Program-made: the position numbers and the translations under genes
Notes under the pieces: generated by a model
Database searches by the model: none
The model's input: only the letters and a program-made list of their open reading frames with translations
Told to the model about the DNA's origin: nothing
Origin: Eledone cirrhosa
Taxonomy: Eukaryota
Assembly (NCBI GenBank): GCA_964016885.1
Contig: OZ024749.1
Coordinates: 22,258,001-22,322,000 of the forward strand
Reading direction: 5' to 3'
DNA: 64,000 nt
Part shown: piece by piece, positions 3,751 through 63,458 of the stretch
How positions within the stretch are numbered: the first letter of the stretch is position 1
How the letters are laid out: each line of letters opens with the position of its first letter

Positions 3751-3917
3751 ATACTTTGGGAGGGTCATGTTGCCAATAAGAAACACACGCACCAGTTGCT
3801 TTCACTTCAATTTATTATATATTTATAAATTTATAAATCTACAAATCTACAAACTTATAAATTTCTGGTTGGTTGGTTGGTTCCACAACCAGATAGTTGT
3901 TTATATATAGTCATAGC

Positions 3918-4865
3918 TCTGGTTAGATACCATTAACAACCAAAAACAAATCCTCCATTCCCATTATGCCACCCCATGACTTCCAAACATCTGATCCACC
4001 GAAACTCGGCCATTTTGGACCATACCAAAATCAACATACTGATTGCGGATTTGGTACGGGTGATGAGAAATGTGTGCCGCATGTGCAACCCCGAAGAATT
4101 AGAGAGACACATACAACACTTCATCCACCGTATGCAGTTCTCTGGCTACAATCAGAGAGTAGAATCAGAGTGTATAGAGGAGCCAGAACCAAATGGGAAA
4201 AAATGGTAAATAATGACATAAATGGGACCTGCCCCTTGTATAGGAGCAAATTTTGGAATAGAATAGAAAGAACTAGGAACAAGGCCAATAGAATAAACTC
4301 ATGGTATGATAGCAATAAATACCAGAGTGTAATGTTCATCAATACAACCCCTAGAGGTGAATTAGCTTACAAATTTAGAAGGGCCCTAAATAAACATAAA
4401 CTCAAAATTAAGATAGTAGAAAGACCAGGTACCTCCGTAAAAACACTTATTAGCAAGACATACCCTTTTCAAAGACCCTCATGTATAGATAAGAAATGTA
4501 TAACCTGTAAAATAAGCCCCCATATTAACTGTAAAACTAGAAATGTAGTGTATAGCATAAGATGCACTGAAGGACAATGTAGAAACAAAAAGATAGTGTA
4601 CATAGGTGAGACAGCTCGTAGTATAGGGGAACGGATAAATGAACACTGGCGAGACCTTCAAGATGATAAAGAATCATCTGTACTCTACCAACATGCTAAG
4701 ATAGAACACAAGGGTAAATTAGAGAACATAGAAATAAAAATAGAATCCACACACAGAAAAGATGCAATGTTTAGGCAAATTACAGAGGCAGTAAGCATAA
4801 AAGAATTACAACCAAAATTAAATAGAAAATATGAGTGGAACAGCATCATCACAACTTACAATTAA
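3918..4865 (+). pseudogene. PLE RT C-terminus plus GIY-YIG endonuclease (frameshifted)
   Basis: MQFSGY, PLYR, CxxC linker, NVVYSIRC..YIGETARSIGERINEH, RQITEAV..PKLN. Confidence 0.9.
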
Positions 4866-5073
4866 GGACAAAATGAAAACACACACACACATAGAACAAA
4901 CAACCAACCAACAACATGTAAATAAATAAACAAATAGATAAATGAACACAAACACACAGAGACACCCGGATGTGGCGCATGCGCAAACTGAGCACACATC
5001 ACACACACAGAAACAAAATGGCGTAGGACAGAAGAAAGGAAAGGCACAGAAACAAACAAAGAAAGGAATCCCC

Positions 5074-5118
5074 AGTCACTGAAGAGGTCACAGAGTGTGT
5101 GACGAAAGGTCAATGACT
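5074..5118 (+). ncRNA. Type-I hammerhead of PLE family A (cleavage triplet altered)
   Basis: agtca-CTGAAGA-g-GTCACA gagtg TGTGAC-GAAA-ggtcaa-tgact. Confidence 0.7.
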
Positions 5119-5338
5119 ATATATAAACAACTATCTGATTGTGGAACCAACCAACCAACCAGAAATTTATAAGTTTGTAGATTTGTAGATTTATAAATTT
5201 ATAAATATATAATAAATTGAAGTGAAAGCATCTGGTGCGTGTGTTTCTTATTGGCAACATGACCCTCCCAAAGTATAACAAAATCGGTTTCAACACACGA
5301 TTTCAGATAAAGAATCTTGCTAAACAAATTCAGAAACG

Positions 5339-5603: not shown

Positions 5604-5671
5604 CTCTGTCTGACGACCGATCCAGACGTATATTAATATTGTCTGGGATCCAGAAACCTTTGGTAATGGAG
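5604..5671 (+). ncRNA. Type-I hammerhead in a pLTR remnant (5471-5770)
   Basis: ctctgt-CTGACGA-extended stem II (gatccagac..gtctgggatc)-GAA ACC ttt GGT A-atggag; 5471-5526 is an inverted partial copy. Confidence 0.8.
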
Positions 5672-8837: not shown

Positions 8838-9965
8838 GAGAGAATTAGTACATCTACCAACATATGTGTACAGATGTACACTCATGCTAGCAAATATATA
8901 AGTTATGTCTTAGTACCTATGCGGTTCTATGCAGGTGAATGCAGAACAATTATATGAAAGACGTAAAATAAGAAGATTTTAAAAATTAAAAATTAACTTA
9001 CTAAAATTTTCACTCCAACTAATTAGTTTCTGTAATGGGATAAATATAGTTACATAATATATATAACTATAGAGAATTCATTACGGCATCATGGAGTCTA
9101 TTCTCAGCTAAGTTCCCAGGCAATGCGCGGACACTAGGAACCCATATAAAAATAATAATTCAGTAGATGGAAAGAAGCTAGCGAGGACTAAATTCCGGAG
9201 CACTGAAAAAATTCACTGCCTCTGGTCAGTGGCAGATTCTAAAGAATCAATCACGTGACACTGAGGTTAATCAGTTAGGAGCGGGTGGTATTATGACAAG
9301 AGCCTACTACTACCATGAAATAGCAGTAAATTTTGGCCAGTTTTGCTCAACAAATAATTTGGAGATAAATATAGAGAATTAGTACATCTACCAACATATG
9401 TGTACAGATGTACACTCATGCTAGCAAATATATAAGTTATGTCTTAGTACCTATGTGGTTCTATGCAGGTGAATGCAGAACAATTATATGAAAGACGTAA
9501 AATAAGAAAATTTAAAAAATTAAAATTTAACTTACTAAAATTTTCACACCAACTAATTAGTTTCTGTAATGGGATAAATATAGTTACATAATATATATAA
9601 CTTTGGAGAATTCATTACGTCATCAGGGAGTCTATTCTCAGCTAAGGTCCCAGGCAATGCGCGGACGCTAGGAACCTATATAAAAATAATAATTCAGTAG
9701 ATGGAAAGAAGCTAGCGTGGACTAAATTCCGGAGCACTGAAAACATTTCACTGCCTCTGGTCAGTGGCAGATTCTAAAGAATCAATTACGTGTCCGCGCA
9801 TTGCCTGGGAACTTAGCTGAGAATAGACTCCCTGATGACGTAATGAATTCTCTATAGCTATATATATTATGTAACTATATTTATCCCATTACAGAAACTA
9901 ATTAGTTGGAGTGAACATTTTAGTAAGTTAATTTTTAATTTTTAAAATTTTCTTATTTTACGTCT

Positions 9966-9966
<1 letters not shown>
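8838..9966. repeat. Retrozyme-like tandem array R1 (534-bp unit, about 1.8 units on minus plus an inverted segment)
   Basis: 8838-9370 repeats from 9371; inversion at about 9790; hammerheads at 9012-9097 (-, mutated core), 9546-9631 (-) and 9827-9912 (+). Confidence 0.85.
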
Positions 9967-12465: not shown

Positions 12466-12569
12466 TATTGAAATTTCCGTTGAAAACAGAAAAGGTCATA
12501 GAAGTGAAGAGTGCTCTATGTAAGTATCAGAGCAAAATTTAATGTATAAAAATCAATACAATATAATTA

Positions 12570-12639
12570 CCTCATTACCAGAGGTTTCCCGAATGAGGCG
12601 AATACGAAAGAAACGTCTTCATTCGTTCGTCAGACGAGG
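12570..12639 (-). ncRNA. Type-I hammerhead
   Basis: cctcgt-CTGACGA-a CGAATGA..TCATTCG g-GAA ACC tct GGT A-atgagg. Confidence 0.8.
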
Positions 12640-13310
12640 CAATATAAAACATGGGTAAATACTTGGAAAGTCTCATCAAGAAAAGCAAAAAAACAAAAAA
12701 GATATAGACAAATGAATTAGAATATGAAATATATAATAATCTTTCAAGAAATATAATTAGGTATGTATATGCGCTCACAGATGTGCATATATGTGTATGC
12801 ACATATGTATACGTATAGTGAAAAAGTGTGCGTAAATATATAATTTAGGGCAAATGTATCTGTATGTCTGTAATCTACAGACAGAATAGATACACCATAA
12901 GAATATGAAGGCACGCGCATAAGCACACCTACACACACGTACACTTAGATGCGGAAGTAAAACAGGTAAGGGGGTGTAATAATTAAAGGAAAGTATCAAT
13001 CTCGATATATGTATAAAAATGGAACAATAATTTAGAAAGAAAAAATTAAAGAAAAGAAGACAAAAAAGGTACAAACATACACACACACGTACATCTCACA
13101 AAAGAAACGCAAAGATATACATGCTTATATACACACGCAGACTTACACATCCGTACGTTCGATACGTACACACACACACACATACTTACACTCACGCATA
13201 TTGACCTGTTTGCATGCACACGCATAAAAATGAGTAAGTAGAAAAAGGGGGGAGAAGAAAAAAGGAACAAAACATAAAACCTAGATGTAAAAACACGGAT
13301 ATAAAGACAT

Positions 13311-15570: not shown

Positions 15571-16356
15571 ACGAAGGGAGTGTGGTACGGAACCAGATGG
15601 ACCATAACGCACCAGAGTACTCAATATTTAGGGTAGTAGAGTGGGTAATAGGAAAATGTTTAACCCCGACGGCAGAGCTCAAGCCGTTTCGACGGTTATT
15701 TCTGAACTAAATTAGAATTTTTAGCGTGTTAATAAATAGACGAACTTTTCAATGGGTAATTCCTTATATGGGAAGATTGTAGTTGTCAAAAAGATTGGTC
15801 AAAATTTCTTGTAAACACGATTAAGTTTTTCTTGGTGGTAGGTGGGAGGTGGGGGTGGCTGAACTTGCCTGTAGAACAATGAGGGGTTGGGTGGAACCGC
15901 TGAAGCGTTGAAAGTGAATTCTATACAGCAAATTCTAAGGAGCGTGTATGAAAGCAGGCGAAAAAGAATTCTGGGGGAATTTGAGAGTGGGACGTTATAA
16001 AGTTAAAAGGTTAATAAATTGAGATTAAAAGATAATAAATAAAAAAAAAAATAATCAATAAATTTAAATAGTAACAAATAATAAAAAATAAAAAATCTCT
16101 AGAGTCTAAAGCAGCCGCTATATTTTTAGCTGGTATTGCGTTATCGGGCAATGCTATATAGAATTTACTGGGGTGGGGGTACTGAGGCTACAGAAGCCCG
16201 ATGGGCTGCCTCGGGGTAGACGAAAGATGAAAAATGAAAAGAAAGGGGAGAGGGAGTGGAAGGTAGTGAAAAGAAGAGATAAAGGGAAAACGAAAATAAG
16301 TACATCTACCCATGTATGCTGGGGTTTCTCCTATCTTGTTATATATATATATAAAT

Positions 16357-17489
16357 TTTAGTAAGTAAGTTGATTTTTAATTTTTAAAATTTTCTTATTT
16401 TACGTCTTTCATATAATTGTTCTACATCCCCCTGCATAGAACCACAAAGGTACTAAGACATAACATATATATTTGCTAGCATAGGTGAACATCTGTACAC
16501 ATATGTTGGTAAATGCATTAATTATCTATATTTATCTCCAAATTATTTGTTGAGCAAAATTTGCCAGAATTTACTGCTGATTCATGGTAGTAGTAGGCTC
16601 TTGTCATAATACCACCCCGCTCCTAACTGATTAACTTCAGTGTCACGTGATTGATTCTTTAGAATCTGCCACTGACCAGAGGCAGTGAATTTTTTCAGTG
16701 CTCCGGAATTTAGTCCTCGCTAGCTTTATTCCCTCCACTGAATTATTATTATTTTTATATGGGTTCCTAGTGTCCGCGCATCGCCTGGGAACTTAGCTGA
16801 GAATAGACTCCCTGATGACGTAAGGAATTCTCTATAGTTATATTATGTAACTATATTTATCCCCTTACAGAAACTAATTAGTTGGAGTGAAATTTTTAGT
16901 AAGTAAGTTGATTTTTATTTTTTAAAATTTTCTTACTTTACGTCTTTCATATAATTGTTCTGCATCCCCCTGCATAGAACCACAAAGGTACTAAGACATA
17001 ACATATATATTTGCTAGCATAGGTGAACATCTGTACACATATGTTGGTAAATGTACTAATTCTCTATATTTATCTCCAAATTATTTGTTGAGCAAAACTT
17101 GCCAAAATTTACTGCTGATTCATGGTAGTAGTAGGCTCTTGTCATAATACCACCCCGCTCCTAACTGATTAACCTCAGTGCCACGTGATTGATTCTTTAG
17201 AATCTGCCACTGACCAGAGGCAGTGAATTTTTTCAGTGCTCCGGAATTTAGTCCTCGCTAGCTTTATTCCATCCACTGAATTATTATTATTATTTTTATA
17301 TGGGTTCCTAGTGTCCACGCATCGCCTGGGAACTTAGCTGAGAATAGACTCCCTGATGACGTAAGAAATTCTCTATAGTTATATTATGTAACTATATTTA
17401 TCCCCTTACAGAAACTAATTAGTTGGAGTGAAAATTTTAGTAAGTAAGTTGATTTTTAATTTTTAAAATTTTCTTATTTTACGTCTTTC
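16357..17489 (+). repeat. Retrozyme-like tandem array R1 (541-bp unit, about 2.1 units)
   Basis: Head-to-tail repeat; hammerheads actcc-CTGATGA..GAA ACTAATTAGT T-ggagt at 16807-16888 and 17348-17429. Confidence 0.9.
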
Positions 17490-17720
17490 AGGTTCACCCG
17501 GGAGAGCACTCGATGTTTAGGTTCACTTCTGTGATGAGGTGTAGAGCTATACAAAGTGTAATATATAGAAAGGATAAAAAGGACGATTGATTATTCCTTC
17601 ATTGCATTTATTGATAGGTGACGCGCGTTTCGCGACTGGTCAGCTCAAGATTCAATCTATATCGATCCTACCCGACTCAATAATCCGCAGCTCGACGGAC
17701 CCTCATAAAATGTTATAAGA
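17490..17720 (-). mobile_element. PLE pLTR remnant with mutated long-stem-II hammerhead (17617-17701)
   Basis: Homologous to 63140-63463; GAAACGCGCGTC half intact, left core reads CCGTCGA. Confidence 0.6.
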
Positions 17721-23489: not shown

Positions 23490-24180
23490 AAGAAATTTCT
23501 TCATATACATGGAACCCCCCCCCCCCCCCCCCGCCACCACCACCACTATGATGGTGGCAGGAGGGATGAAGAAAAAACACACACTGGATAGTTCTAAATT
23601 GTTAGCAGCTGCAAGATATAAGCTGACCACAACACCAACAACACTACCAAAATAATGGTAGAGGTCAACTGTACTGAACAATAGCAAGCAAAAACACTAC
23701 AGGGAGCCTCACCTCAGAAAGAATTCTATAGACTTCTGACTGAGGAATGCTCTCAGAACTGACCAATGGGTAGTTTGACAATTTTTTTGCTATTTTGTTC
23801 CTTTAACACCTTGTCCCTTCTACCAGTTTATCAATTGGTTATGCTAACTCCAACAATAACAACACTTAGAATGAGGAATGTTCTAATAACTGACCAATGA
23901 GACGAGAAGAGTACCTTTGACACTGAAATTCGTTTGTTTGAATTCATATGACTCCAGTTCCTCAGTGAAATAACAACCCAACAAGGAAGTGGGCATATCA
24001 GAGTATTGACAATATTATAATATTATACACCCCAACAACATATGTACTTGTCTATACCATACTAATTCAAACTGCCTGAAGAGGTCACAGCCAAAGATGG
24101 CTGTCACTGAAATATATATAGCAGTAATAAACGAGGCTAAATTTTAATCATTTGACTTTTATTTAACTTTATTTTATATT
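23490..24180 (+). mobile_element. 3'UTR/pLTR fragment of PLE family Z with hammerhead at 24071-24125
   Basis: Homologous to 49110-49747; actgc-CTGAAGA-GGTCACAGCCA aaga TGGCTGTCACT-GAA ATATATAT A-gcagt. Confidence 0.85.
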
Positions 24181-24591: not shown

Positions 24592-27986
<3,395 letters not shown>

Positions 27987-29488: not shown

Positions 29489-32400
29489 CGGCGATGAATT
29501 AGTTTTGAGAGGGGTTTGATATGAAATCGTGTGTCTAAACAAATATTGTTATACTTGGGGAGGGTCATATTTGTGTAATATTGCCAGAATTAATAACAGA
29601 ACACACTAACTGTTTGGTTGGTTTTCGCTTTTCGCTTCTGTGTCTTTTATATCGGTAATCTAATTTATTCGGTCCTCAATGTTGCCATTGACTGACCAGC
29701 GGTCAAAAATAATACAGATACAATATAGACACAAACACATATATATAGTTTATCAAAGTTCTTTCCTTGCAAAGTTCTTTCCTGCAACATCGTCAGTGGT
29801 GCTATTGTTTCCTCCCGTTACATTGTATTTTCTACACCATCTTTATTTAGTCTGTTTATATATTTATTTATTAGTTTATTTTATTTTGTCTTCTTTGCGC
29901 ATGCGTTTGCGTGTGTGTATAGGTGTTTTGTTTGATGTGTGTTCGTGATTGGGTGACTGTGTATTGGTTAATGTATTCTATCTTTACTAGTGTGTGTTTA
30001 TATGTGTTTGTTGTTATTGTGCTTGTGTATGTATTTATTTATTTATTTATCTATTTATTTATTTATACTTCTCTTAGGTCAGTGTTGTTTGTTTGGGTGT
30101 TGTTGTTATTCCATTCATTCTTTCTGTTTAGCCTTGGCCTTCTAATTTCTATTTCACTGGCCTCTCTGATTTGCCTATCTGCTGGGTCATTTCTATGTTT
30201 AGATATTATTCTAATTTCTATGTTGTCTATGTTACCGTCGTGTTGTTGTCTGGCATGTTCGTAGAGTACTGACCCGTTTTTTCGTCCTTTTAGTTCCCCC
30301 CAGTGTTGGTCTATCCTTTCACCTATGCTACGAGCTGTCTCGCCTATGTATTTTGTTGTCATGTTTCTGCAAGTACCCTCTGTGCATCTTATGCTATAGA
30401 ATACGTTTCTAGTTTTACAGTTTATCCGGGGGTTCACCTTACATATGATACATTTCCTATTAGTACAATGGGTTTTCTTAAAAGGGTAGGTTTTGCTGAT
30501 CAGGGTTTTTATGGTGGTTCCTGGCTTTTCTACCACCTTAATCTTTAAGTGGGTCTTTCTCAGGTCTTTCTACACTGGTTAGCTAATTTCCCTCCAGGGG
30601 TAGCGTCCACAAACATGACACTCTGGTATCTCTGGTTGTCGTACCATGAGGTGGCTTTCCCTATCTTATGTCTAGCCCTATCTAAGCTATTCCATGATTT
30701 GCTCCTGTATAATGGGCAAATTCCTTTCATGTCCAGTTCTATGAGGGTCTTATACTTCTCCATGGCTCCTCCGTATACTCTGACTCTATCTCTTTGGTTG
30801 TAGCCAGAGAACTGCATGCGGTTGATGAAGTGTTGCATGTGTCTTTCCATTTCTGTTGGGTTGCACATACGTGACACATTCTTCATCCCTCGTACCAAAT
30901 CTGCGATCAGAATATTAAACTTAGCACTACTGGACATTGCTGAGTTTTGAGTATCAGGTATTTGGAGGCCATGGGTTTAGCATAGTGTGAGTGAAGAATT
31001 TGGGCTCTCTCGTCTATAGTGTTAATCCAGAGTTCCGTGTCTAATACAGGTAGTCTATTGTTAGGGTGTTTGGAAGGGTAGTCGATAGTTACAGTTATAC
31101 TCTGGTGTATGGAATTAGCTATCTGCTGGATGCTTTCCATTGTGCTACGTTCTAAATCAAACTTGTTAGTGCTCTCTAGTGGGGATGTTCTTATAACTAT
31201 ATTGATATCGTCTACGTAACGAGAGTACATGATGAGGTCTATGGAGCTTTCATTAAGGAGATCTTTAAGTCTCCTTTCCCACCATACCATGAAAAGGTTG
31301 GCAACATCACCTGCTATGTTGATACCAATGGCTGCTCCCTCATTTTGGGTGTAGATCTTCTTGTTGAACTTGAATATGTGGCCCTTTAGGGTAGTTTTGA
31401 TACTAGCCCCTATTGCATGTGGGACCATTTTTCTTACCTGATCATTGTTTTGGGGGGTCCGTATAGCTTTGGTCAACCCAATCCACCTTCCCATGGGAGT
31501 CTTTTTAGCCATTGAGGTTATGGTGGGGGGTCTACCTCTTATGGGTCTACTGGAGCAGAAACGTCTAAGGTCATGGCTGTCTAGGTAGTCAGTGTCGTAG
31601 GTAAGTCTAAGTAGGAGACCCAGTTCGTCTGTGTCGACGTCGCAGAACTCCACCTCACTCTCAATGATCATCTCCACACATTTTTCCACAGCAAAATCAA
31701 TGTTAATGGATGGCTACAATGATACCACATCCATGCTGCCTATTATGCAGTTGGATAGGTTCGTGTTTTTGTTGCACTCACTGATTCTGCTGAGGAGGTC
31801 CTCTGTACTGTCACATACATCTGGGGACATCTTGATTATGGGGCGTATAACCATTGAGAGGAAGTAGGAGATCCTGTAGTTGCTAGCTATATTTGCTCCG
31901 CATACGCGTCTTGTTGGTGGTCCTTTGTCGGGTCGTCGACTATCTTGTGGTCTTTGCGGAGCCTATACAAGTGTGGTATGCCATTGTTAGACGCCTGGAA
32001 GTGGTTGGCAGTGCGTCTGCTTGGCTTTAGGATGACGGTCCACATCATCATGTGAGGGTTGAGGATTTTCTCTCTCCCATCATGTGTTTGCTGTGCAATT
32101 TCGCTCGTGTTGCTGATGTGGGGTTGCATAGCCTTGATGTAGTTCGGCATGCTATCTATTGACATCCTACCAGACTTATCCGTGGGTAGACATACTACGT
32201 CACCATCCCTTGTGCGCTGCTTGAGGCTAATCAAGCCTTCTACAGGTTTCCTCTCAAGTTGTTGGGCCTCTGGTCTGCTCTGTCTCTTAGTATACCGGTC
32301 TACTATTTGTCTAATCTTATTTCTAGCTATGGTGAACTGTGCCTCTGTCTCGTCATCTATTTGTTGTGGTATGCAAACTCTTTTATTAAAGGGTAACCTC

Positions 32401-33359
32401 GTAGGATAGATATTACCCATCTTATATGTTTTGTCAGCTGGGTTGAAAAATAGTTTCTCTAAGGGGTTGTCATTATATCTATCGTCATAGTTGTGTGTGT
32501 TGCTATTATTGTTATTATGGTGGTTGTTGTTGTTCCTATCATTAGCATTATTATTATTGTTATGATTGCTAGATTTATTGTTGCTGTGTTTGTTAGATGT
32601 ATTGTTGTTATGATTGCTAGGTGTATTGTTGTTGTGATTGTTAGATGTATTGTTGTTATGATTGCTAGATGTATTATGCTGTGATTGTTAGATGTATTGT
32701 TGTTATATTGCTAGATGTATTGTTGCTGTGATTGTTGTTTACTTCACCGTTATTGTTGTTGTTACTGTTATTTCGACCATTGTGGTTGTTACTTGTATTA
32801 TGTTTCTTGTTTTTGTTGTGTCTATCATTAATGTTGCTACATGTATTATTTCCATTATTACCACTGTGGTTGTTGTTGTTGTTGTTGTTCATATTGTTAC
32901 CGTTATTGCTACTGTGGTCGCTGTTGCTGTGTCTGTAGTTAATGTTTCTATTATTATTATTATTGTGGTTGTTGTTGTTGTTCTGTCTATCGTTAGTATT
33001 ATTACCATTATTACTATTTCTCGCTCTCCTGCTATTGTTATTGTTATGGTTATTACTATTATAGTTGTTATTTCTATACTCAGAGTTATTATTTATATTA
33101 CTACTACCGTTATTATTGTTGTTGTTGTTGTTTACTTTTGCATTCCAACGTATTTGATAAACTATATATATGTGTTTGTGTCTATATTGTATCTGTATTA
33201 TTTTTGACCGTTGGTCAGTCAATGGAAACATTGAGGACCGAATAAATTAGATTAACGATATATAATACACAGAAGCGAAAAGCGAAAACCAACCAAACAG
33301 TTAGTGTGTTCTGTTATTAATTCTGGCAATATTACACAAATATGACCCTCCCCAAGTAT

Positions 33360-33446: not shown

Positions 33447-34490
33447 AAAAACATGGGGAGAAGAATACTGCATGGTTGCACATGGATTACATATTATAAA
33501 ATTAGTCCCTCATCAGTGATTTGCCAACGATCATTGGTATTTCATCGAATTAAAAATCATATACCTCAGGTTGGCGCGAGCAATAACTAAAATAAGCTAT
33601 TGGGACAAGTGAGTCGCGTAAAGCGAGTGAGACAAGTAAACAACATAGAAGGAAAAGCTAACCGAAGATGGGAAGAAAAACAAGCAACATGGTTATCCGA
33701 TCAACATAAGCTGGGTGAATTTCATGAGCGCTCAGAAAACTGACCTTTCGCTGTGAATGGGATGTGAGAAAGAAAGAATCCCACTCCTAGCGAACGGGAA
33801 GAAGTGAGAAGGGAGAAACAAAGAGTGAGTGAGTGGAAGTGCGAGGAAGAGGTCAGTCGAGAGAAAGTGTTAACTGACAGAGGGGACGAAAGAAGGTAAG
33901 AGAAACAGAGAGAACGGGGGAGTAGTAAGAGAGAAAGAGAGAAACAGATAATCGCAGTTTAGGTAATATATATGAAAAACATGGGGAGAAGAATACTGCA
34001 TGGTTGCACATGGATTACATATTATAAAATTAGTCCCTCATCAGTGATTTGCCAACGATCATTGGTATTTCATCGAATTAAAAATCATATACCTCAGGTT
34101 GGTGCGAGCAATAACTAAAATAAGCTATTGGGACAAGTGAGTCGCGTAAAGCGAGTGAGACAAGTAAACAACATAGAAGGAAAAGCTAACCGAAGATGGG
34201 AGGAAAAACAAGCAACATGGTTATCGGATCAGCATAATCTGGGTGAATTTCATGAGCGCTCAGAAAACAAACCTTTCGCTGTGAATAGGATGTGAGAAAG
34301 AAAGAATCCCTCTCCTAGCGAACGGGAGGAAGTGAGAAGGGGAGAAACAGAGAGTGAGTGAGTGGAAGTGTGAGGAAGAGGTCAGTCGAGAGAAAGTGTT
34401 AACTGACAGAGGGGACGAAAGAAGGTAAGAGAAACAGAGAGAACGGGGGAGCAGTAAGTGAGAAAGAGAGAAACAGATAATCGATATATA
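33445..34490. repeat. Tandem dimer, 528-bp unit
   Basis: tgaaaaacatggggagaagaatactg starts at 33445 and 33973; units are highly similar. Confidence 0.9.
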
Positions 34491-34965: not shown

Positions 34966-36012
34966 AATGGAATAGAATGAAACGAAATTTCATTTCTCAC
35001 ACTTAGTACGGCACTTACTTAAATGTATGTATGTATACGTACATACATATATGTATACAGACGTACAGTAGCATGTATATATATATACATACAGGCACAC
35101 ATACATATATGCACGTATCAGTTTACCGAACATTTATTATAATGCTCGGTTTGTTCGTTTGTAAACAAACAAACACCCTTAATTACGCCGTACAGTGTTT
35201 AGGCAACCACGTCACCTTTTTGTTCAACACTGACACAGGAACGATGTACTAGTTTCAAGCTTATTAGCTATCGTCAGCACCGTATACCTTTCTGCCAGAT
35301 GGTTGAACGTCCGAAAGAAGATACTTTCCTTATGAAAATTAACGGCTGAGCAGCCTAATTTGCATATCGAGTGAGTTCAGTCGGCCAGGCGCACCGAAAA
35401 CGATAAATGGAATAGAATGAAACGAAATTTCATTTCTCACTCTTAGTACGGCACTTACTTAAATGTAAGTATGTATGTATACGTACATACATATATGTAT
35501 ACAAACGTACAGTAGCATGTATATATATATATACATACAGGCATAACATACATATATGCACGTATCAGTTTACCGAACATTTATTATAATGCTCGGTTTG
35601 TTCGTTTGTAAACAAACAAACAGCCTGAATTACGCCGTACAGTGTTTAAGCAACCACGTCACCTTTTTGTTCAACACTGACACAGGAATGATGTACTAGT
35701 ATAATAAATGGCTGTTTGTTTGTTTACAAACGAACAAACCGAGCATTATAATAAATGTTCGGTAAACTGATACGTGCATATATTTATGTGTGCCTGTATG
35801 TATATATATACATGCTACTGTACGTCTGTATACATATATGTATGTACGTATACATACATACTTAGATTTAAGTAAGTGACGTCTAAGAGTGAGAAATGAA
35901 ATTTCGTTTCATTCTATTCCATTTATCGTTTTCGGTGCGCCTGGCCGACTGAACTCAATCGATATGCAAATTAGGCTGCTCAGCCGTTAATTTTCATAAG
36001 GAAAGTATATAC

Positions 36013-38087: not shown

Positions 38088-38153
<66 letters not shown>

Positions 38154-38220
38154 CAAGGTTAGCAAATAAGGAAAATGTTTCAAAATAAATTTTTAAAAAT
38201 TAACTTTACTTACTATGGTT

Positions 38221-38304
38221 ACCTTTACCGAATCGGTTTCGAATCTCAAAAATAAACGGAGACCATACGGCCTTCGTCGCAAAGAAAGATTCTCGTCAGA
38301 AGGT
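38221..38304 (-). ncRNA. Type-I hammerhead with ~40-nt loop II (pLTR family X, 38150-38713)
   Basis: acctt-CTGACGA-GAATCT..AGATTC-GAA ACCG att CGGT A-aaggt; the pLTR end is repeated at 38633-38713. Confidence 0.88.
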
Positions 38305-38711
38305 TCTTTTCATTCGAAGAATATAAAATTCTTGAATTTAAATTACGAACTAGCGCTACCCAAAACTGTTCCCGAGATGAGAGTAAATGAAGTGGAATCA
38401 ATTTTTTCAAGGGCCGAAAGTAAAGATAGAGGCAGAGGGAAGTAGGTCAATCGGCTACCACTATCACTGGCAGCAGTCAGAACGACCAACATTTTTCTCA
38501 ACATAGAGGAGTATAGTAATAATAGGATATGTGTTCCTACACGCACAAGGCGCTAAGGGACACATGTATTGTCCAACCATATGGCAATGTGGTTCAATGG
38601 CAGGTTAATAAATTAACGAGCCAGAACATATATAATCAAGGTTTAGCAAATAAGGAAAACGTTTCAAAATAAAATTTTAAAAATTAACTTTACTTACTAT
38701 GGTTACCTTTA

Positions 38712-41700
38712 CCTTCTTCAGATGGGTTAAGGATGAGGAGTGAAACCGTACACCGGATCTCCCTGCAACAAGTCTTAACACCCCGGCGGGCAGGCGCTGC
38801 AAAATAACACCCAGGAAACAATCCTTGCATACCAGACCCAGCATCAGACAAACAGATGCGACAAAAAAAAAAAAAAAAAACCACCTGCCAGAGTTACCTC
38901 CCTTGACCTGCTGCAAAATCAAAACAAACTATTTTTGCGAGCAATGAACCTTGATGTGGATTTAACCCCCAAAACTCTTTCCGAGCAATATAAGGAACAC
39001 TTTTGATTATTTATGCCCTTGAGAAGCCCAACTGGGCGAAACGTACGTAGGTGCTGTTTTAAATAAACATGTTTTAACGGTCTATTCTCCGATTTTTTAC
39101 TTTCCCACGTGCTTACGCTCTGCTAACTCTCTAGCCCACTAAATATTAACACTTCGAATATTTAATACTGCCGGCCTAGTATCGAGCGCCTAGTATCGAG
39201 CACCTTTGGCATACGCTACTTGGCAAATAACTATATGTATCACCTATGCTCCCCTTTTTTCTCTTTCTCGATACGTAAATACTGTATTACCGTGCTCCTT
39301 TTGTAGAGCATCTCACCTTATTTGCCATTATGTTGGAGAACCAGCCGTTACCCATGTCTGTCAAGTGTATCCCCTTACCCAGCAGAAAAACCTACCTTAA
39401 ACTGCTTATAGACGCTACTAATTCGTTTATACGGAGAGTCAGATGGAAGGCCTACCACCTGAATAAGAACACCCGTAACCTTCCTGAACCCAAAGAGAGG
39501 TATGGCTTCAAAACATACCGAAACCCACCGCACAACACCTTACTGGACTCCTTTGAAGAGGACCTGCTGAAAATGATCAAAAACGTTAAGTTCAGAAAGA
39601 AACACCAATGCAGCAATCCATTCTTAACGTCCCTTGATACACTAATAACTAAGATCAAGAATGACCCGCACCTCTTCGTCACCTCCGACAAACCAAAAAG
39701 CTGTACAAGATGGACGCGAGAAAGTATAAAAAATTCATCTATAAGGAACTACACAAAGACTACAAAAAGACACCCTCTAGTACCCTAAATGACATAAATA
39801 GAGTAGGGAAGGATATAGTCACCAGCTTAGAAATAGAAAAGTACACTAACCCGTACGTCCCTCTGACGCCTAAGTTCTCTCTTAAGGATCACAAATATGA
39901 CTTTAATGAAAGCCCCTCTATTAGACTAATATGCCCCTCAACATCAGATATAGGTAAGATTAGTAAAGTGATCCTCGACAGAGTACTACTGGAGCTTAAT
40001 AGAAAGGCTAAGGTCTGCCTCTGGGGCAACACCGACCAGGTCATAAATTGGTTCACCGAGTTGCCGGATAAAGCCACCTTGAAATTCATCCAGTTTGATA
40101 TAGATAGTTACTACGCCTCTATCTCCCCCATACTCTTAAATAAGGCACTTATCTTAGCTAGATCTAACACTAGCCTCACTAAAAAAGAAATAGACATAAT
40201 TCTAGCGGCGCGTAGAACCATTATCCAGTTCGAAGGCTCCCACTGGACCAGAACCAACCGTCCTGATAACTTCGATGACACGATGGGGTCCAGTGACTCA
40301 GCGCAAGTAACTCACCTGGTCGGGATATACCTCCTACATAAGCTTAGGGAAGAGATACAGACCCTACAAGGCGGTGTATATAGGGATGACGCCCTGTTTA
40401 CCGTTAGGAACCATAGTCCCCGTAGGATAGAGAACCTTAACAAACATATACACAGGTTCTTCAAGTCATACGGCCTATTCGTAACTATGGACCTCAACCA
40501 CAGGGTTGTCAACTTCCTGGACGTGACACTGGAGTTGAGTACAGGCTTATACAAGCCATACCATAAGCCTGGAGAGTGCCTCTCTTATATTAATTATGCC
40601 TCAAACCACCCTAAGCAGACTCTCAACTCTATAGTCTATAGTATCTCACATAGAATCTCGAGGCTATCCGCCAATGAGGATATCTTCAACCAAGCGACAG
40701 ATTACTACAATAGGGCCTTGATAAGCGCCGGATTTAACCGAGGAATTTCCTACAGCCCTAACGCTAGCTCTAGAAACCATCCCCTCATAAAACAAACGTT
40801 ATAGAAAGCCATACCTATAACCGATCACGCGGCGACCTCGTTGAAGTCGGATATAATAGAATAGATAACCGCACTAAAGATCACGACCCCGGCGACGGTG
40901 AACACTGTAGATTACTCGAACTATTCCCCTATTACAAAACCAACAAAGGCAACGGCCTACTACCAACGCCTTCAAACCAACATGTTCGTGTACATAAACA
41001 TGGAAGAGGTAAGAAGAGTGCACCCGAGCATAAAGTGAAAGGGGCACCGAACGGGCGACTGCGCATTAACACACATAAGAGCGGTCACCTAGATGGAACC
41101 ACCCGTAGCAAAAGTACAAGGACACGGAATCACCACCGTAACGTCCTATGGTCCCCCCCTACTCTCGGAGTGTGGCCTCCAACATACCCCGGATGTTCTT
41201 CGAAGCCTTAGAGAAGAACTTCCCGCCCAACCATAGGTATAGAAAAATTCTTAATAGGAATAATATAAAAATATCCTTCTCTACTACTCCTAACCTAGCA
41301 GACATCATAGGAACAACGAACCACAGTAAGATGACCAAGACACAGCACCTCGACACAGACGCACCTACACCTGACAATAACTATATCGGCCTTAACAACT
41401 CCCTGGCAGCATCCAATAGTGTTGACAACGGCATCCGCAGACGCAACCAGCATAACCGTGAAATGACTGGGGAACATGCAGGACATGACGTGCGGAATAA
41501 CAATCGCAGCACCCCGCGTGCTGTGGGTTGTAATTGTGCTAACGACCGCTGCGGTAGCGTAGGTAACAACGCAGGCAGCAACAATGATAGCCTTACCGTG
41601 GGAAATAGACGGAACCGCGACAGAAATTGCAACTGCCGCGACAGAGGACGCTGCCCCCTTAGAGGATACTGCTTGACTGATAGGGTTATATATAGATGCA

Positions 41701-42610
41701 CTATTACTAGCCACAATAGCGTTAAACATTATATAGGTGCTACGTCCGGCCCGTTCAAAATTAGGTTTCGAACACATCTCCACTCTTTCACAAATAGAAA
41801 ACTAAGGCACTCCACTTCGCTCGCGGACTACATCACATCACTAAAGGACTTAAACATCAGCTTCTCCACGCACTGGGAGATTGTCGATAGGGCTGCACCG
41901 TACAAATTCAAGAGGAAATGCGATCTTTGACTCATGGAGCTCTACCACATTATAACTGCACCCCACGAACTCATCAACAGCAGAGCTGAAACAGCGATAA
42001 GTTGTACACATCGCTTAAAAATATCCTTCTTCAGATGGGTTAAGGATGATGAGTGAAACCGTACACCGGATCTCCCTGCAACAATTCTTAACACGCAGGC
42101 GGGCAGGCGCTGCAAAATAACATCCAGGAAACAATCCTTGCATACCAGACCCAAGCTCAGACAAACAGATGCCGCAAAAAAAAAAAAAAAAAATTGTCCG
42201 GGAAAGACTGCCCTAAGAGCGGCCAGAGTTGTTTCCCTTGACCTGCTGCAAAATCAAAACAAGCTATTTTTGCGAGCAATGAACCTTGATGTGGATTTAA
42301 CCCCCAAAACTCTTTCCGAGCAATATAAGGAACACTTTTGATTATTTACGCCCTTGAGAAGCCCAAATGGGCGAAACGTACGTAGGTGCTGTTTTAAATA
42401 AACATGTTTTAACGGTCTATTCTCCGATTTTTTACTTTCCCAAGTGCTTGCGCTCTGCTAACTCTCTAGCCCACTAAATATTAACACTTCGAAAATTTAA
42501 TACTGCCGGCACTAGTATCGAGCACCTTTGGCATACGCTACTTGGCAAATAACTATATGTATCACCTATGCTCCCCTTTTTTTCTCTTTCTCGATACGTA
42601 AATACTGTAT
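38712..42610 (+). mobile_element. Full-length-architecture PLE family Y (partial tandem, ~575-bp direct repeats)
   Basis: 38712-39287 is repeated at 42026-42610; hammerhead variants at 39015-39054 and 42350-42389. Confidence 0.92.
39354..42056 (+). pseudogene. PLE RT plus GIY-YIG polyprotein, disrupted
   Basis: CIPLPS..FIRRVRWKA, LKDHK, IRLICP, FDIDSYYASI, MGS, YRDD, FLDV, PYHKP, CNCR..CPL..VIY..YIG..FKIRF..H, CDL*LME..LINSR..CTH. Confidence 0.92.
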
Positions 42611-42938: not shown

Positions 42939-45900
42939 TCTGTTTGTTCATCGACCTGCGACGGCAATTGCGTGCGTTTGTTAAATGGTAAAGTCGTGGC
43001 GTGGACTCGTCGCAGGTCGAATGATTTATCGGAGGGATTATAAAACGCAGAGTTCCAGGCTGCTGCTTTATGTGTACTATTGCTATTGTTATTGTTAGTT
43101 GTGTTGTTTCTATTTCTATTTCCACCAACAGCCTCATGGTTGTTTCTATGTCTCTCATAATTACTCCTGTCTCTTTCCACTGGCTCATTGTTGTTATCTA
43201 CCCTATTTTGTGTGTCTGTGTGTTCGTCTTGGTTATTCTCTTTGTCCTTAGTCTCCCTTCTCCTTTTAATCCTATTAATTTCCCTTATTTCTGTGATTTC
43301 TGTGCTACTGTCATTACTTGTTTTCTGTGCCTGTGTGTTTGTTAAGATTGTGGTGGTGGTGAGAGACATTGAATGCGTGTGTGTTGGTGTTGTTGATGTG
43401 TGCTGTTGTTGATGTGTGTTGTTGTTGTCTCCGTGTGTGTTATTGTTGTTGTGTGTGTTTTTATTGTTGTTTGTGTCTGCGTGTCTGTTGTTGTTGTTTC
43501 TGGGTATGTTGTTATTGTTGTTGTTGTTGATGTGTGTGTTGTTATTGTTGTTTGTGTCTGTGTGTCTGTTGTTGTTGGGATGTGTGTTGTATATGTGTGC
43601 GTATATTGTTGCTTTTGTTTTTGTTTTTGTTTTTGAGGCTCCAGCGTAGTTTTGTAAATGATTTTTCTATTTCTGACAGACAACTAATCATATTTACCTT
43701 CTTGAATGTCGCAAATTTCGGGGGTAAACATAACACAGACATCTCATCGTTATCTATTCTTGCGTTACCATATATATTTGTGTTGTTGTTGTTGTTGAAC
43801 TCTTCTGTTAATGAGGTGTCGGTCATATTTATACCGTCAATTTTGTCGGGATATCTATTGGTATTCTCTATAGTATCCTGATTTAGCTTTATCTGCTTAA
43901 GCCACTTAAGTTTCTTGTTAAAGTGCTTATCACTTTCTTGAGTAATGTACTGTTCTTCAGGGCGTATAAGGCTTATAAATATTAGTTTCTCTCTTGGTGT
44001 GGTGATCCTAGCTATTCCTTGTATTAAAAATAGCACTAGTACACATAAAGCAACAGCCTGGAACTCTGCGTTTTATAATCCCTCCGATAAATCATTCGAC
44101 CTGCGACGCGTCCACGCCACGACTTTACCATTTAACAAACGCACGCAATTGCCGTCGCAGGTCGATGAACAAACAGAAGCACAATTTAGTATAGCTAGAT
44201 CCGAACTTAGAAATATTATAGAATAGTATAGCACGAAGCATAATAGAATGGAGGCCCAGCAACTGGGAGAAAAATCTGCAAATGGCTTGCGTAAGCTCAT
44301 GCAGCGCTCACGTAATGGAGAGATAGCATGCTTTCCAACAGACAAGTCTGGCAGAATGTCGGTTGACAGCCTGCCAAACTACATCCAGGCAATGCAACCC
44401 CATATCACTAACACAACAGAGGTAACACCACAGGAGCATGAGGATAGAGAAAAAGCCCTCAATGCCCATATGGTGATGTGGACGAATATAATGCAGCCCA
44501 ACAAAAGGACTGCCAACAACTTCCAGGCCTGGAACAATGACGTGCCGGCGTCGTATGGGCTTCGAAAAGACCATAAAACGGTCTGTGACCCTGTCGCGGG
44601 ACCACCAACACGGCCAGTCTATGGAGCTAACATTGCTAGTAACTACTGACTGTCCTACTTCGTCTCCCTGATCATACGTCCCATCATTGAAATGTCCCCA
44701 GATGTATGTGACAGCACGGAGGACCTCCTCAGCAGAATCGGCGTGAGTAACCGATCTGGGGACCTAACAAACTGCATAATAGGCAGTATGGATGTTGTGT
44801 CCCTGTATCCATCTATTGACGTGGATTTTGCTGTGGAGAAATGCGGAGAAATGATCAGTGAGAGCAAGGTTGAGTTCCGTGGGATTGATACCAGTGAGCT
44901 GGGACTCCTACTTAAGCTTACCTATAGTAATAGTTACCTAGACACATATGACATTAGCAACCTGTGCCCTACAAGACCAGCAAGAGGCAGACCGCCTACC
45001 ATTACCTCAATGGCCAAGAAAACCCACACAGATAGATGGAACGGGTGGACCAGAGCCATACGAACACCCGAAAACCACGATGAACTGAAGAAAATGATTG
45101 CACATGCGGTAGGGGCCAGCATAAAACTAAACCTTAAGGAACATATGTTCAAATTTAATGGAAAAACATATGCCCAAGAGGAAGGAGCAGCCATTGGTGT
45201 TAGCATTGCAAGCGACATAGCTAACTTATTCATGGTATGGTGGGACAGTAGACTTAAACTTAAACTTAAAGAACAATTAGAAGACCCCTTAACCCTGATA
45301 ATGTACTCCCGCTACGTTGTTCATATAAACATCGTAGTTAAGACACCCCCACTAGAGAACAGTCAGGAACTAGAGAAAAACACAATGGAAAGCATCCAGC
45401 AAATAGCAAACTCCATCCACCAGAGCATTAGAGTTACTATAGAATACCCAAGTAAACACCCCAACCATCGATTACCTGTACTAGACACAGAGCTCTGGTT
45501 AGATACCATTAACAACAAAAAAACAAATCCTCCATTCCCATTATGCCAAACCCATGACTTCCAAACATCTGATCCACCGAAACTCGGCCATTTCGGACCA
45601 TACCAAAATCAACATACTGATTACGGATTTGGTACGGGTGATGAGAAATGTGTCCCGCATGTGACACCCCGAAGAACTAGAGAGACACATACAACACTTC
45701 ATCCACAGTATGCAGTTCTCTGGCTACAATCAGAGAGATAAAATCAGAGTGTATAGAGGAGCCAGAACCAAATGGGAAAAAATGGTAAATAATGAAATAA
45801 ATGGGACCTGCCCCTTGTATAGGAGCAAATTTTGTAATAGAATAGAAAGAACTAGGAACAAGGCCAATAGAATAAACTCATGGTATGATAGCAATAAATA

Positions 45901-46851
45901 CCAGTGTGTGATGTTCATCGATACAACCCCTAGAGGTGAATTAGCTTACAAATTTAGAAGGGCCCTAAATAAACATGAACTCAATATTAAGATAGTAGAA
46001 AGAACAGGTAGCTCCGTAAAAACACTTATTACCAAGACATACCCTTTTCAAAGACCCTCATGTATAGATAAGAAATGTATAACCTGTAAAATAAGCCCCC
46101 ATATTAACTGTAAAACTAGAAATGTAGTGTATAGCATAAGCTGCACTGAAGGACAATATAGAGACAAAAAGATAGTGTACATAGGTGAGACAGCTCGTAG
46201 TGTAGGGGAACGGATAAATGAACACTGGCGAGACCTTCAAGATAATAAAGAATCATCTGTACTCTACCAACATGCTAAGATAGAACACAACATGCTAAGA
46301 TAGAACACAAGGGTAAATTAGAGAACATAGAAATAAAAATAGAATCTACACACAGAAAAGACGCAATGTTTAGACAAATTACTGAGGCAATAAACATAAA
46401 AGAATTACAACCAAAATTAAATAGAAAATATGAGTGGAACAGCAACATGACAACTTACAATTAAGGACAAAATTAAAACACACACACACATAGAACAAAC
46501 AACCAACCAGTAACATGTAAATAAACAAATAAATAAATGAACATAAACACACACAGACACCCGGATGTGGCGCATGCGCAGACTGAGCACACAACACACA
46601 CACAGAAACAAAATGGCGTAGGATAGAACAAAGGAGAGGCACAGAAACAAAGAAAGGAATCCCCAGTCACTGAAGAGGTCACAGAGTGTGTGACGAAAGA
46701 ACTATGACTATATATAAACAATTATCTGGTTGTGAAACCAACCAACCAGAAATTTATAAATTTATAAATTTATAAATATATAATAAATTGAAGTGAAAGC
46801 AACTGGTGCGTGTGTTTCTTATTGGCAACATGACCCTCTCAAAGTATAACA

Positions 46852-47168: not shown

Positions 47169-49840
47169 AAGTTAAATAAAAGTCAAATGATTAAAATTTA
47201 GCTTCGTTTATTACTGCTATATATATTTCAGTGACAGCCATCTTTGGCTGTGACCTCTTCAGGCAGTTTGAATTAGTATGGTATAGACAAGTACATATGT
47301 TGTTTAGGTGTATGATATTGTCAATACTCTGATATGCCCAGTTCCTTGTTGGGTTGTTAATTCACTGGGGAACTGGATACACTCAGGCGTGATGCTAACT
47401 ACCCCAGGACGGACAACCCCAACCGCAGGACACGTGGGGGGGGGGGGGGGGGGGAGGAAACGGGCGACCACCCCACGATGGATCTCCCGGGGCAGACAAC
47501 AACCACCCCACAAATCCGGGCCGTGAAGATAACAGAAAGTATAGAGCCCAAAAGGGAAGCAACAGTGCGGAAACCACCAGCAAACCAACAAATCTCCAAC
47601 AAATCACGAAGCCCCCAACCCACACATATAGGAGGAGACACCGACAAATCACGTGGTACAACCCACCCTACTCAGCGGCCCTAAAGAAAAGCTTGGCCCG
47701 ATTGTTCTTTGGAGCACTTGACAAATGCTTCCCGAGGGACCACAGATACCACAGGATCTTCAACAGACACACTGTGAAGCTTTCGTATTCCACCACGAGA
47801 AATTTGGCCCAACACATAGCTAGCATCAACAGAAGTAGGCTTAAAAACCACACACAACCAGAAGATGGCAATACAAACACTCAGCAGAACCATGTGAAAG
47901 GAGGGAAGGGGGGACCCAGAGCCCACCCAAGAAACACAAACAGACCCAAGGACCCCCCACCGAGCATGGGGGAAGACCAACATGTAACACATAATGAGAA
48001 TCCTAATCTAAGCACGCAGAGGCCGCCCACCCTCTGCAACTGTAGAAACCCCGAATCATGCCCCCTTGCTAATGAATGTCTCAAGAAGAACATAGTGTAC
48101 GGTTGTAGGGTTAAAACCCCCAACTCCGAACACCTCTACATAGGAGCCACATCAACGAGCTTTAAGGACCGCTGGTACAACCATCGCCATTCATTCAAGA
48201 AGGAGGCCAAAAGGAAAAGCACAGCTCTCTCCGACCTGATCTGGAAGCTTAAGCTGGACAGGACCCCATACTCTCTGGCCTGGTACATAATCAGGAAAGT
48301 ACCACCCGATAAAAGGGGATCTTGCATATGCAAACTATGCCTGAACGAGACCCTTGAGATACTAAGAGTTGGAAGCGGCCTGATAAACCTCAGAACCGAC
48401 TTCTTCGGGACATGCAGACACCTTAGAGCCGGGACCTTTCTCAAAATATATGGACAGTAGCAACACAAGAAGATGTGAACTCCCCTCAAGCTATAGGGAC
48501 TTCTACAGAACATGAAAACACCTCTCGGCCAGACCTCCCTCAAGCTATATGGACAATTACAACACCCTAGGTTGTGAACTCCCCTCAAGCCATAGGGAAC
48601 AACCCAGGCGGAGCAGACACCATGATAGCCTAGAGACAGAATCGGACACAGCCATAATAATCTGGCCAACATCTATAACACAAACACTTTTAATTTACCA
48701 GATTTCTGACTTTAAAGTTCCAATCTTAAATCTTGATTTCTCTATATTAATTTGTTATTTGTTTTCTGCCCTCTTCACTGTATAACCTTATATTTATATT
48801 TATTTTAAGTTGAGATAGATTATAACACAAACACATTGAATATCTCATCTTAACATCTTGTATCATACCAATCTATCCAACATATTCTGACCTTGAGATT
48901 GGTTATAGCACACACACACACACACTTTATCCTACATTATTTCTCACTTCTCCATATACATTATCATTACTTTTTCACCAATCTCTCATTTACTCTTTAT
49001 TCTTTATTCTCTATTTATTTATTTATTTTCAAATTACACAAATTATATTAATTATTTTATTTTATTATATTATTTATTTATCTTCTGTTTTCTTCATTTA
49101 TTGCCTTATATTTCTTCATATACATGAAATAACCCCCCCCCCCGCCACCACCACTACGGTGGTGGCGGGTGGGATGAAGAGAAAACACAAACTGAATACT
49201 TCTAAATTGTTAGCAGCAGCTGACCACTACAACAACAACAGTACCAAAATAATGGTGGAAGTCAAATGTACTGAACAATAGCAGGCATAAACACTACAGG
49301 GAGCCTCACCCCAGAAAGAATTCTATAGACTTCTGACTGAGGAATGCTCTCAGAACTGAACAATGGGAAGTTTGACACATTTTTTGATATTTTGTTCCTT
49401 CAACACATTGTCCCTTCTACCATTTTATCAATTTTTAAGCTAACTCCAACAATGACAACACTAATAACTGACCAATGAGAGGAGAAGGGGACCTGTGACA
49501 CTAAAATTCGTTTGTTTGAATTCATATGACTCCAGTTCCCCAGTGAATTAACAACCCAACAAGGAACTGGGCATATCAGAGTATTGACAATATCATACAC
49601 CTAAACAACATATGTACTTGTCTATACCATACTAATTCAAACTGCCTGAAGAGGTCACAGCCAAAGATGGCTGTCACTGAAATATATATAGCAGTAATAA
49701 ACGAAGCTAAATTTTAATCATTTGACTTTTATTTAACTTTATTTTACACTACTCCGGAGTAACCAAACCAACCTGCGCACTTCGTCGAGTGCTCCAGCCT
49801 GCATACTGAGGTGTTGGTATACAACCAACATAAACTCAAT
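47162..49840 (+). mobile_element. 5'-truncated PLE family Z with inverted 5' pLTR
   Basis: 47162-47379 is inverted to 49528-49746; hammerheads at 47213-47267 (-) and 49641-49695 (+); about 1.3-kb 3'UTR. Confidence 0.9.
47693..48460 (+). pseudogene. GIY-YIG endonuclease domain of PLE family Z
   Basis: IFNRHTVKLSYS, CNCR..CPL..C..NIVY..YIG..FKDRWYNH..STALS..IW..CKLCLNE..LIN..CRH. Confidence 0.9.
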
Positions 49841-50685: not shown

Positions 50686-52078
<1,393 letters not shown>

Positions 52079-60788: not shown

Positions 60789-60945
60789 TGTATGTATGTA
60801 TGTATGTATGTATGTATGTATGTATGTATGTATGTATGTATGTATGTATGTATGTATGTATGTATGTATGTATGTATGTGTGTATGTGTGTATGTGTGTA
60901 TGTATGTATGTGTGGATGTGTGTATGTATGTATGTATGTATGTAT

Positions 60946-63117: not shown

Positions 63118-63458
63118 CCAGGGAGTGTAACTTGGAGTTACTGTAGGTTCACCCAGGTGAGCACTCGATCTTTAGGTTCACTTCAGTGTCGCGGTGTAGA
63201 GCTAGACAGAGTGTATTATAGTGAAATAAGATAACAAGGACGATTTGTTACTCCTTCATTACGTTTATTGGTTGGTGACGCGCGTTTCGGCACTGATCAG
63301 CTCAAGGTTCATTCCTTGTTAAGAAGTCTGACGAGCCGCAGATTACAGAGTCGGGTCAGATCGATACAGATCTAACCTTGAGCTGATCAGTCGCGAAACG
63401 CGCGTCACCAACCAATAAACGTAATGAAGGAGTAACAAATCGTCCTTGTTATCTTATT

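Follow-up and report, generated by a model that had tools for sequence, protein, structure and literature searches.

R1, a tandem hammerhead repeat of the metazoan retrozyme kind with Penelope-like insertion features

Results

Layout of the R1 insertions

The window analysed here, a 64-kb stretch of eukaryotic DNA of invertebrate appearance, is AT-rich and dense in (TA)n microsatellites and decayed retroelement frames. It contains two insertions of a repeat referred to as R1 (8838-9966 and 16353-17490), which carry five type I hammerhead copies altogether, named A to E (Table 1). Insertion 1 switches orientation at 9790-9792, the bulk of 8838-9966 lying on the minus strand, and at its left junction it grades into (TA)n(GA)n microsatellite sequence. 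Within insertion 2, the two units share 97.5% identity; each is ~94% identical to the insertion 1 monomer. The GC content of the monomers is 0.34-0.35.

Measured from cut to cut, the complete monomers are 534 and 541 nt long, as an earlier note on this DNA had stated. The same note called the unit ORF-less. This holds for the 541-nt unit, in which no ORF was found (the longest ATG frame has 16 aa on the hammerhead strand and 29 aa on the other strand), and for the 534-nt unit insofar as the open reading frame list has no frame of at least 100 aa within either insertion. One CUGAUGA per unit had also been claimed: it is intact in four of the five copies, but the copy at 9012-9097 reads AUGAUGC, and the only full monomer inside 8838-9966 therefore ends in a broken core. 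If R1 gives rise to a released or circular RNA, the 541-nt monomer of insertion 2 is the best candidate for it.

Table 1. Coordinates of the R1 features in the window.
Feature	Position	Strand	Remarks
Insertion 1, inverted 5' arm	8838..9792	-	~1.8 head-to-tail units
Insertion 1, sense 3' arm	9790..9966	+	hammerhead C and 59-nt tail, then (TA)n
Full 534-nt monomer, cut site to cut site	9017..9550	-	downstream hammerhead (copy A) broken
Hammerhead copy A	9012..9097	-	core AUGAUGC, two core changes; presumed dead
Hammerhead copy B	9546..9631	-	core intact; stem I with one mismatch; inner hairpin with two mismatches
Hammerhead copy C	9827..9912	+	stem II 9840-9845/9887-9892, U-A at 9844/9888; predicted cut after 9907
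Insertion 2	16353..17490	+	two units and 66-nt tail
Hairpin immediately upstream of hammerhead	16761..16794	+	U-A to C-G double change at 16765/16790 among other copies
Hammerhead copy D	16807..16888	+	stem I 16807-16811/16884-16888; core 16812-16818; predicted cut after 16883
Copy D, stem II	16820-16825/16863-16868	+	G-C at 16824/16864
Copy D, inner hairpin	16833-16855	+	
Copy D, stem III	16873-16882	+	palindromic
Full 541-nt monomer	16884..17424	+	flanked by two hammerheads, both cores intact
Hammerhead copy E	17348..17429	+	core intact; outer stem II pair lost
Tail after last cut site	17425..17490	+	stem-loop just before 3' end; resembles tail at 38152-38225

The hammerhead and its predicted fold

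A type I descriptor matched 11 times in the window and never in any of 60 block shuffles, so the hammerhead motif is not a product of chance; block shuffles still contained 12-31 CTGANGA words (10 shuffles). The core elements CUGANGA, GAAA and NUH follow each other in order and are closed by stem I, with an intact core in four of the five copies, and the cut triplet is GUU in all five. Stem I has 5 bp and is able to extend beyond an internal loop. The stem II domain, 51-55 nt overall, is made up of 6 bp, a 7x7 internal loop and a capped hairpin. The inner extension previously assigned to stem II, TATAGTTA/TAACTATA, is indeed present and perfect in three of the five copies, but it is set off from stem II by the 7x7 internal loop. 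This type I topology in tandem units is unlike that of the plant LTR retrozyme, in whose two LTRs the hammerhead is of type III.

Stem III consists of a 10-nt palindrome. It is predicted to form a two-strand duplex of -9.0 kcal/mol, to stay unfolded as a lone hairpin and to pair with a probability of 0.11 in the monomer. A dimer design based on a palindromic stem III has been described for Penelope hammerheads (PMC4209133; PMC6765202).

In isolated copy D, the pairs of stems I and II reach probabilities of 0.99, and the fold of the hammerhead motif has a z-score of -4.0 (0 of 200 shuffles) vs -1.9 on the opposite strand. When the whole two-unit insertion 2 is folded, the stem I probability is only 0.05 and 0.01, this stem being mostly outcompeted. 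The monomers are predicted to be 62-64% paired, with circular folds of -131.3 kcal/mol for the 534-nt form (z -5.1; antisense z -1.7) and -128.9 kcal/mol for the 541-nt form (z -6.7; antisense z -1.3), 40 shuffles being used for each.

Rfam gave no match at the gathering score in the whole window and missed all five R1 copies; below this threshold, four matches were obtained in 16300-17600, with no hammerhead among them. A covariance model built from the five copies had strong matches in the window to those five only, while the long-stem hammerheads at 52520-52622, 12558-12654 and 38209-38319 scored E 0.07-0.56 amid microsatellite noise. A scan of viral contigs gave no match. In metagenomes, the core combined with stem II was matched twice; both matches lacked stem I and the stem III palindrome and were rejected as chance.

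The C-A opposition next to the hammerhead core

All five copies have a C opposite an A between the core and stem II (C16819/A16869 in copy D); base pair 10.1-11.1, directly beside the core, is thus absent from R1 hammerheads. This is the oddest feature of R1, it was overlooked in the earlier note, and it may slow cutting. It can be read in two ways, as a mismatched 10.1-11.1 pair or as the known extra base after A9 accompanied by a new one, an A ahead of G12. Our search found no published case of C-A at this place; the Penelope variants of Lunse et al. and supplements lay outside it and may list one. At this position, U-U is the mispair reported to be tolerated best (PMC3088659), and a C-A is therefore expected to be slower. 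The axolotl retrozyme HHR_Amex2 is likewise mismatched at the base of helix II, by U-U rather than C-A, and its monomer reached 22% cleavage in an hour (PMC7229834).

Among the best-supported 40 of 191 variant rows from the sequencing runs described below, none changes the core, stem III or the C/A positions, so that the C-A opposition is probably the norm of the family. We consider that cutting by this hammerhead is likely to be slow or protein-assisted.

A stricter reading deserves consideration at this point. The same element could be mobilised by Penelope while its hammerhead is practically inactive alone, owing to the C-A, the GUU site and the competing folds; its structure would then serve as a protein binding or start signal, the tandems would be due to template jumps or read-through, without formation of a circle. 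The C-A of every copy and the low stem I probability in the two-unit context favour such a reading. So does the anole Penelope element, whose hammerhead needs its protein to cleave and can be dispensed with for insertion in vitro (PMC11167929), as do Xenopus retrozymes, for which eight of nine dimers were inactive in vitro and one cleaved (Li, Clavereau and Pollet 2026, bioRxiv 10.64898/2026.07.22.740005). We nevertheless regard it as unlikely. The cleavage of the mismatched axolotl retrozyme and the core and stem III free of variants in the best 40 of 191 rows speak against it, and so do the ends discussed below.

Paired changes in the stems

The stem II forms GTAATG/CATTAC and GTAAGG/CCTTAC reported earlier were borne out, the first in the three copies of 8838-9966 and the second at 16820-16825/16863-16868; the pair concerned is U-A in copies A, B and C and G-C in copies D and E. 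The suggestion that this double change reflects selection fared less simply, since it fails on the window alone and gains moderate support from reads and contigs outside it. In the window, covariation concerns one of 20 pairs and amounts to one event between two insertions. Its score was reached by 40 of 500 shuffles, and at least one such pair by 361 of 500. As a single, non-significant event, it was rejected as proof of selection.

More copies came from four of 12 listed sequencing runs, which were compared with one unit (16610-17150); the small-share runs X5, X7 and X8 were left out. R1 matched 7266 of 12,467,656 reads in X10 (organism A, RAD-seq), 2126 contigs in X1 (organism A, perhaps the very sample the window comes from) and 49 contigs in X4 (organism B), whereas X6 yielded only two contigs, which added nothing. 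Both versions of stem II are present in the reads or contigs of the two organisms. T at 16824 was found in 851 of 1334 X10 reads and accounts for 84% of the depth in X1 and 80% in X4; A at 16864 was found in 115 of 552 X10 reads, with 65% and 85% of the depth, respectively.

The unequal frequency of the two halves of the change in X10 counts against covariation. It should be noted that the X10 library appears to have been cut at AATT, which may explain the mismatch: four of the six read-end pile-ups shown fall on AATT sites, and position 16864 would be sampled with bias because two such sites flank it. Coming from a DNA library and falling mostly on AATT, these pile-ups were rejected as RNA ends. 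In X4, the depth without T at 16824 equals the depth without A at 16864 (25.0 each), which, as far as unphased sums can tell, is what one would expect if G and C were carried by the same contigs.

Two further double changes were observed. In the inner hairpin, 16835 T>C and 16853 A>G occur in 61 of 437 and 74 of 538 X10 reads, at 45% and 42% in X1, and at identical depth in X4 (68.9, 2 contigs). In the hairpin upstream of the hammerhead, 16765 T>C and 16790 A>G occur in 996 of 2006 and 992 of 2077 X10 reads, but are discordant in X1 (58% vs 31%) and X4 (29% vs 63%).

These variants were tested against a structure predicted from the window alone, using the best 40 of 191 variant rows, none of them phased by read. 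Three Watson-Crick double changes were counted against 0.32 expected, a value reached in 71 of 20,000 permutations, and in 33 and 63 of 20,000 under two other settings. When the two rows of the stem II pair noted at the outset were removed, two double changes remained vs 0.31 expected (689 of 20,000; same 40 of 191 rows), and pairing was kept in 12 of 20 changes at paired sites vs 0.32 expected (51 of 20,000). The pair is broken in eight of the 22 variant rows at paired sites among these 40.

Selection is not the only conceivable source of such changes. In a satellite or MITE-like repeat, the hairpins might be palindromes at the DNA level, in which switching of the template from one inverted arm to the other produces the paired changes; the hammerhead would then be a relic. 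Quasi-palindrome repair can yield double changes without selection, and the double change of the window is ~5% likely to arise somewhere in the unit (a hand estimate from 18 shared differences and 143 predicted pairs). We find this origin extremely improbable, since folding is strand-specific, the antisense fold holds one double change with 8 pairs kept vs 9 broken, and the insertion ends are positioned relative to the hammerhead; moreover, eight single changes shift between G-U and Watson-Crick pairs, which DNA palindromes would not favour. Selection on RNA structure thus appears likely, given the extra double changes, the kept pairing and the folding specific to the hammerhead strand, a moderate and unphased body of support.

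Ends, targets and tandem joints

Both insertions end 59 and 66 nt past the predicted cut, each after a stem-loop. Only insertion 2 has a readable 5' end, which follows a short (TA)n run and starts 8 nt beyond a predicted cut; no target-site duplication was seen at this insertion. Insertion 1 has a 5' inversion and microsatellite on both sides; as both flanks are (TA)n(GA)n, any target-site duplication is indistinguishable from the flanking microsatellite. As side observations, a 12-nt word at 16299-16310, ~40 nt upstream of insertion 2, exactly matches the antisense strand of the R1 unit and may be due to chance or be the relic of a short inversion, and the 3' end of insertion 2 directly abuts sequence (17490-17700) related to 63145-63453, with a diverged copy of the hammerhead region at 63328 in antisense orientation.

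A 5' end so close to the cut in insertion 2, and within ~4 nt of its own predicted cut in another hammerhead family (38152-38713), argues against a hammerhead that does nothing by itself. The same can be said of the summed contig depth of X1, which is highest over the cut site (16876-16894).

In six comparisons, the R1 tail proved similar to the tail of the 485-nt hammerhead unit of that family (38152-38713), with 0-10 of 2000 shuffles doing as well. Its similarity to five other families is not significant (71-1963 of 2000 shuffles). A short motif, CTT(T)ATTT, near the 3' ends of four families was discounted as evidence, having been chosen after looking.

Penelope elements are known for inverted 5' copies, a tail and a bias towards (TA)n and other microsatellites (bioRxiv 10.1101/2021.04.23.441226). 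In PAc, the anole Penelope element, reverse transcription starts internally and AT-rich DNA is nicked (PMC11167929). With its tail end, its 5' inversion and its microsatellite targets, R1 appears to share Penelope features, as judged from two insertions only. Its fixed 3' end lies 59-66 nt past the cut vs 85-92 nt in PAc (computed from the PMC11167929 coordinates), and AT-rich targets are common to both. A search for an autonomous partner sharing R1 sequence found none among the Penelope-like copies of the window at E 1e-8, so a Penelope helper can only be inferred.

These typical Penelope features would also fit R1 being the pseudo-LTR (pLTR) of an autonomous Penelope-like element, both insertions being its 5'-truncated partial tandems. 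Most Xenopus retrozyme families stand beside pLTRs in the tree of bioRxiv 10.64898/2026.07.22.740005, and 91% of the R1-matching X10 reads continue into unlike sequence. The readable loose ends, however, look like diverged R1 or ends of AATT-cut fragments (21 of 339 rows, 30 letters each). Complete units join head to tail, and no ORF lies between successive hammerheads at such joints in both insertions and in other samples; a frame for RT and GIY-YIG between pseudo-LTRs is absent from the R1 unit, unlike the Penelope elements of PMC4209133 and PAc (PMC11167929). The tandem joint from 17147 to 16610 was recovered as DNA in 112 X10 reads (23 starts), four X1 contigs and one X4 contig, that is, in three of the four runs compared, which represent other individuals and a second organism. 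Overall, a pseudo-LTR origin seems very unlikely.

Proposed life cycle

R1 is probably a retroelement of the metazoan non-LTR retrozyme kind that lacks autonomy and is mobilised by Penelope, and we propose the following full cycle for it. Transcription of tandem copies on the hammerhead strand would yield a multimer. AT-rich DNA would be nicked by a Penelope-like RT/GIY-YIG protein, presumably supplied in trans, and reverse transcription would start inside the RNA, after the stem-loop ~60 nt past the hammerhead. Such an internal start would give fixed 3' ends, insertion into (TA)n and an occasional 5' inversion. The hammerhead probably cuts slowly, and best as a dimer held by the palindromic stem III; its cutting would set some 5' ends and may release monomers, to be circularised by host ligases. 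Finally, the long stem II domain, with its 6 bp, 7x7 loop and capped hairpin, would be retained as RNA structure, and paired changes would accumulate for this reason.

We give the D and E dimer a roughly even chance of cleaving itself in vitro. A far-reaching version of the proposal, in which the C-A hammerhead works, the inner hairpin is selected in at least two species, the ends record the cycle, the tail hairpin recruits one Penelope RT for several families and cleavage matters in vivo, is doubtful in our opinion. Insertion by the anole Penelope protein did not need hammerhead cleavage (PMC11167929).

Relation to known retrozymes and Penelope elements

By its architecture, R1 appears to belong with the metazoan non-LTR retrozymes, an already described kind. 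It shares with those of Cervera and de la Pena 2020 (PMC7229834) the tandem non-coding units with one type I hammerhead each, a GC content under 45% (34-35% in R1), a strongly self-paired circular fold and the presence of Penelope elements in the same genome. The name "retrozyme family" used for R1 in the earlier note is supported by this architecture. The R1 stem II domain of 51-55 nt differs from the 4-bp hairpin of the PMC7229834 retrozymes. Circles and cleavage were demonstrated for these, whereas R1 is known from DNA sequence and predicted folds.

The R1 unit (534-541 nt) also exceeds the ~170-400 nt of the RNAs tested in PMC7229834, a range that had been correctly quoted as typical of metazoan retrozymes. 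The conclusion that R1 is of unusual size was rejected, since hammerhead repeats of ~500 bp (pDo500, PMC2837043) and consensus lengths of 51-972 bp (bioRxiv 10.64898/2026.07.22.740005) are already published and other repeats of the window measure 464-485 nt. R1 and the retrozymes of that preprint are also alike in co-occurring with Penelope elements. The preprint's test for an active element asks for two consecutive units with complete hammerheads; insertion 2 has them (D and E), while in insertion 1 copy A is broken and copies B and C point apart. The set studied there consists mostly of vertebrates and establishes kinship with pLTRs by homology, whereas no pLTR homologous to R1 is found in the window.

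Like the pLTR hammerheads of Penelope (PMC4209133), that of R1 has a 5-bp helix I, a long helix II, a helix III that is small and palindromic, and, after A9, an extra base with a G-C pair beside it. The further unpaired A before G12 in R1 is undescribed in the texts consulted of PMC4209133 and PMC11167929. With pDo500 of Dolichopoda cave crickets, reported in 2010 (PMC2837043), R1 shares a tandem unit of ~500 bp, one hammerhead and compensatory changes, which concern stems I and II there. pDo500, which was shown to cleave in vitro, forms a long satellite array that takes up ~5% of the genome, whereas R1 here occurs as short dispersed insertions.

R1 thus adds to the animal retrozymes one more family in which selection on RNA structure has moderate support; such selection on hammerhead repeats is not new, having been reported for the cave-cricket repeats (PMC2837043). 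If the C-A variant cleaves, the descriptors used in hammerhead searches would widen, because Rfam misses all five copies. If 5' termini fall at the cut genome-wide and 3' termini follow a shared tail hairpin, retrozymes would be tied to the internal initiation of Penelope elements, and the same pattern would bear on whether Penelope-type hammerheads cut in vivo.

Other hammerhead families and retroelements of the window

Eleven frames of the window were scanned, with GIY-YIG matches in two, RVT_1 in one and endonuclease-RT families in one; one of the three GIY-YIG/RT matches passes the curated cut-off. Decayed Penelope-like RT/GIY-YIG copies lie at 3912-5271, 30063-32687, 44227-46842 and 50828-51965. 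The Penelope-like copies fall into two or more related families, with identities of about 70% and 90%. A LINE-like endonuclease-RT remnant was found at 53380-56386.

A second retrozyme-like family is represented at 38152-38713 (minus strand) by one 485-nt unit with a 74-nt tail. Its hammerhead (38221-38304) has a stem II domain of 52 nt with a standard G-C at the base, and the insertion abuts the pLTR of the Penelope-like copy 38712-42604, in opposite orientation. A third family (24966-27894 and 34971-36005) consists of tandem 464-480-nt units with internal inversions near 26467 and 35702; its compact hammerhead has a U facing a U at the base of stem II and a palindromic stem III. Another hammerhead repeat is present in three copies (23542-24169, 47174-47377 and 49150-49739), two of them running into (TA)n 54-66 nt beyond the cut. 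As a GIY-YIG-like frame (47399-48460, with 33% identity to 41142-41930) lies upstream of one copy, this repeat is probably a pLTR.

Three non-R1 hammerhead families meet (TA)n 54-74 nt past their cuts at four of the eight non-R1 sites examined, the other four having (TA)n at 112-167 nt or no run nearby. Two-copy tandem repeats of ~528 nt (33456-34480) and ~432 nt (60931-61794) have no hammerhead descriptor match; the former contains a CUGAUGA without evident stem II and GAAA. Further hammerhead-like motifs occur at 52532-52606 (-), 63328-63406 (+), 12576-12633 (-) and 5610-5665 (+), with stem II domains of 36-60 nt. Domains of this length are found at five non-R1 sites of the window; a long stem II is not unique to R1, which suggests that it is common among the Penelope-type hammerheads of this genome.
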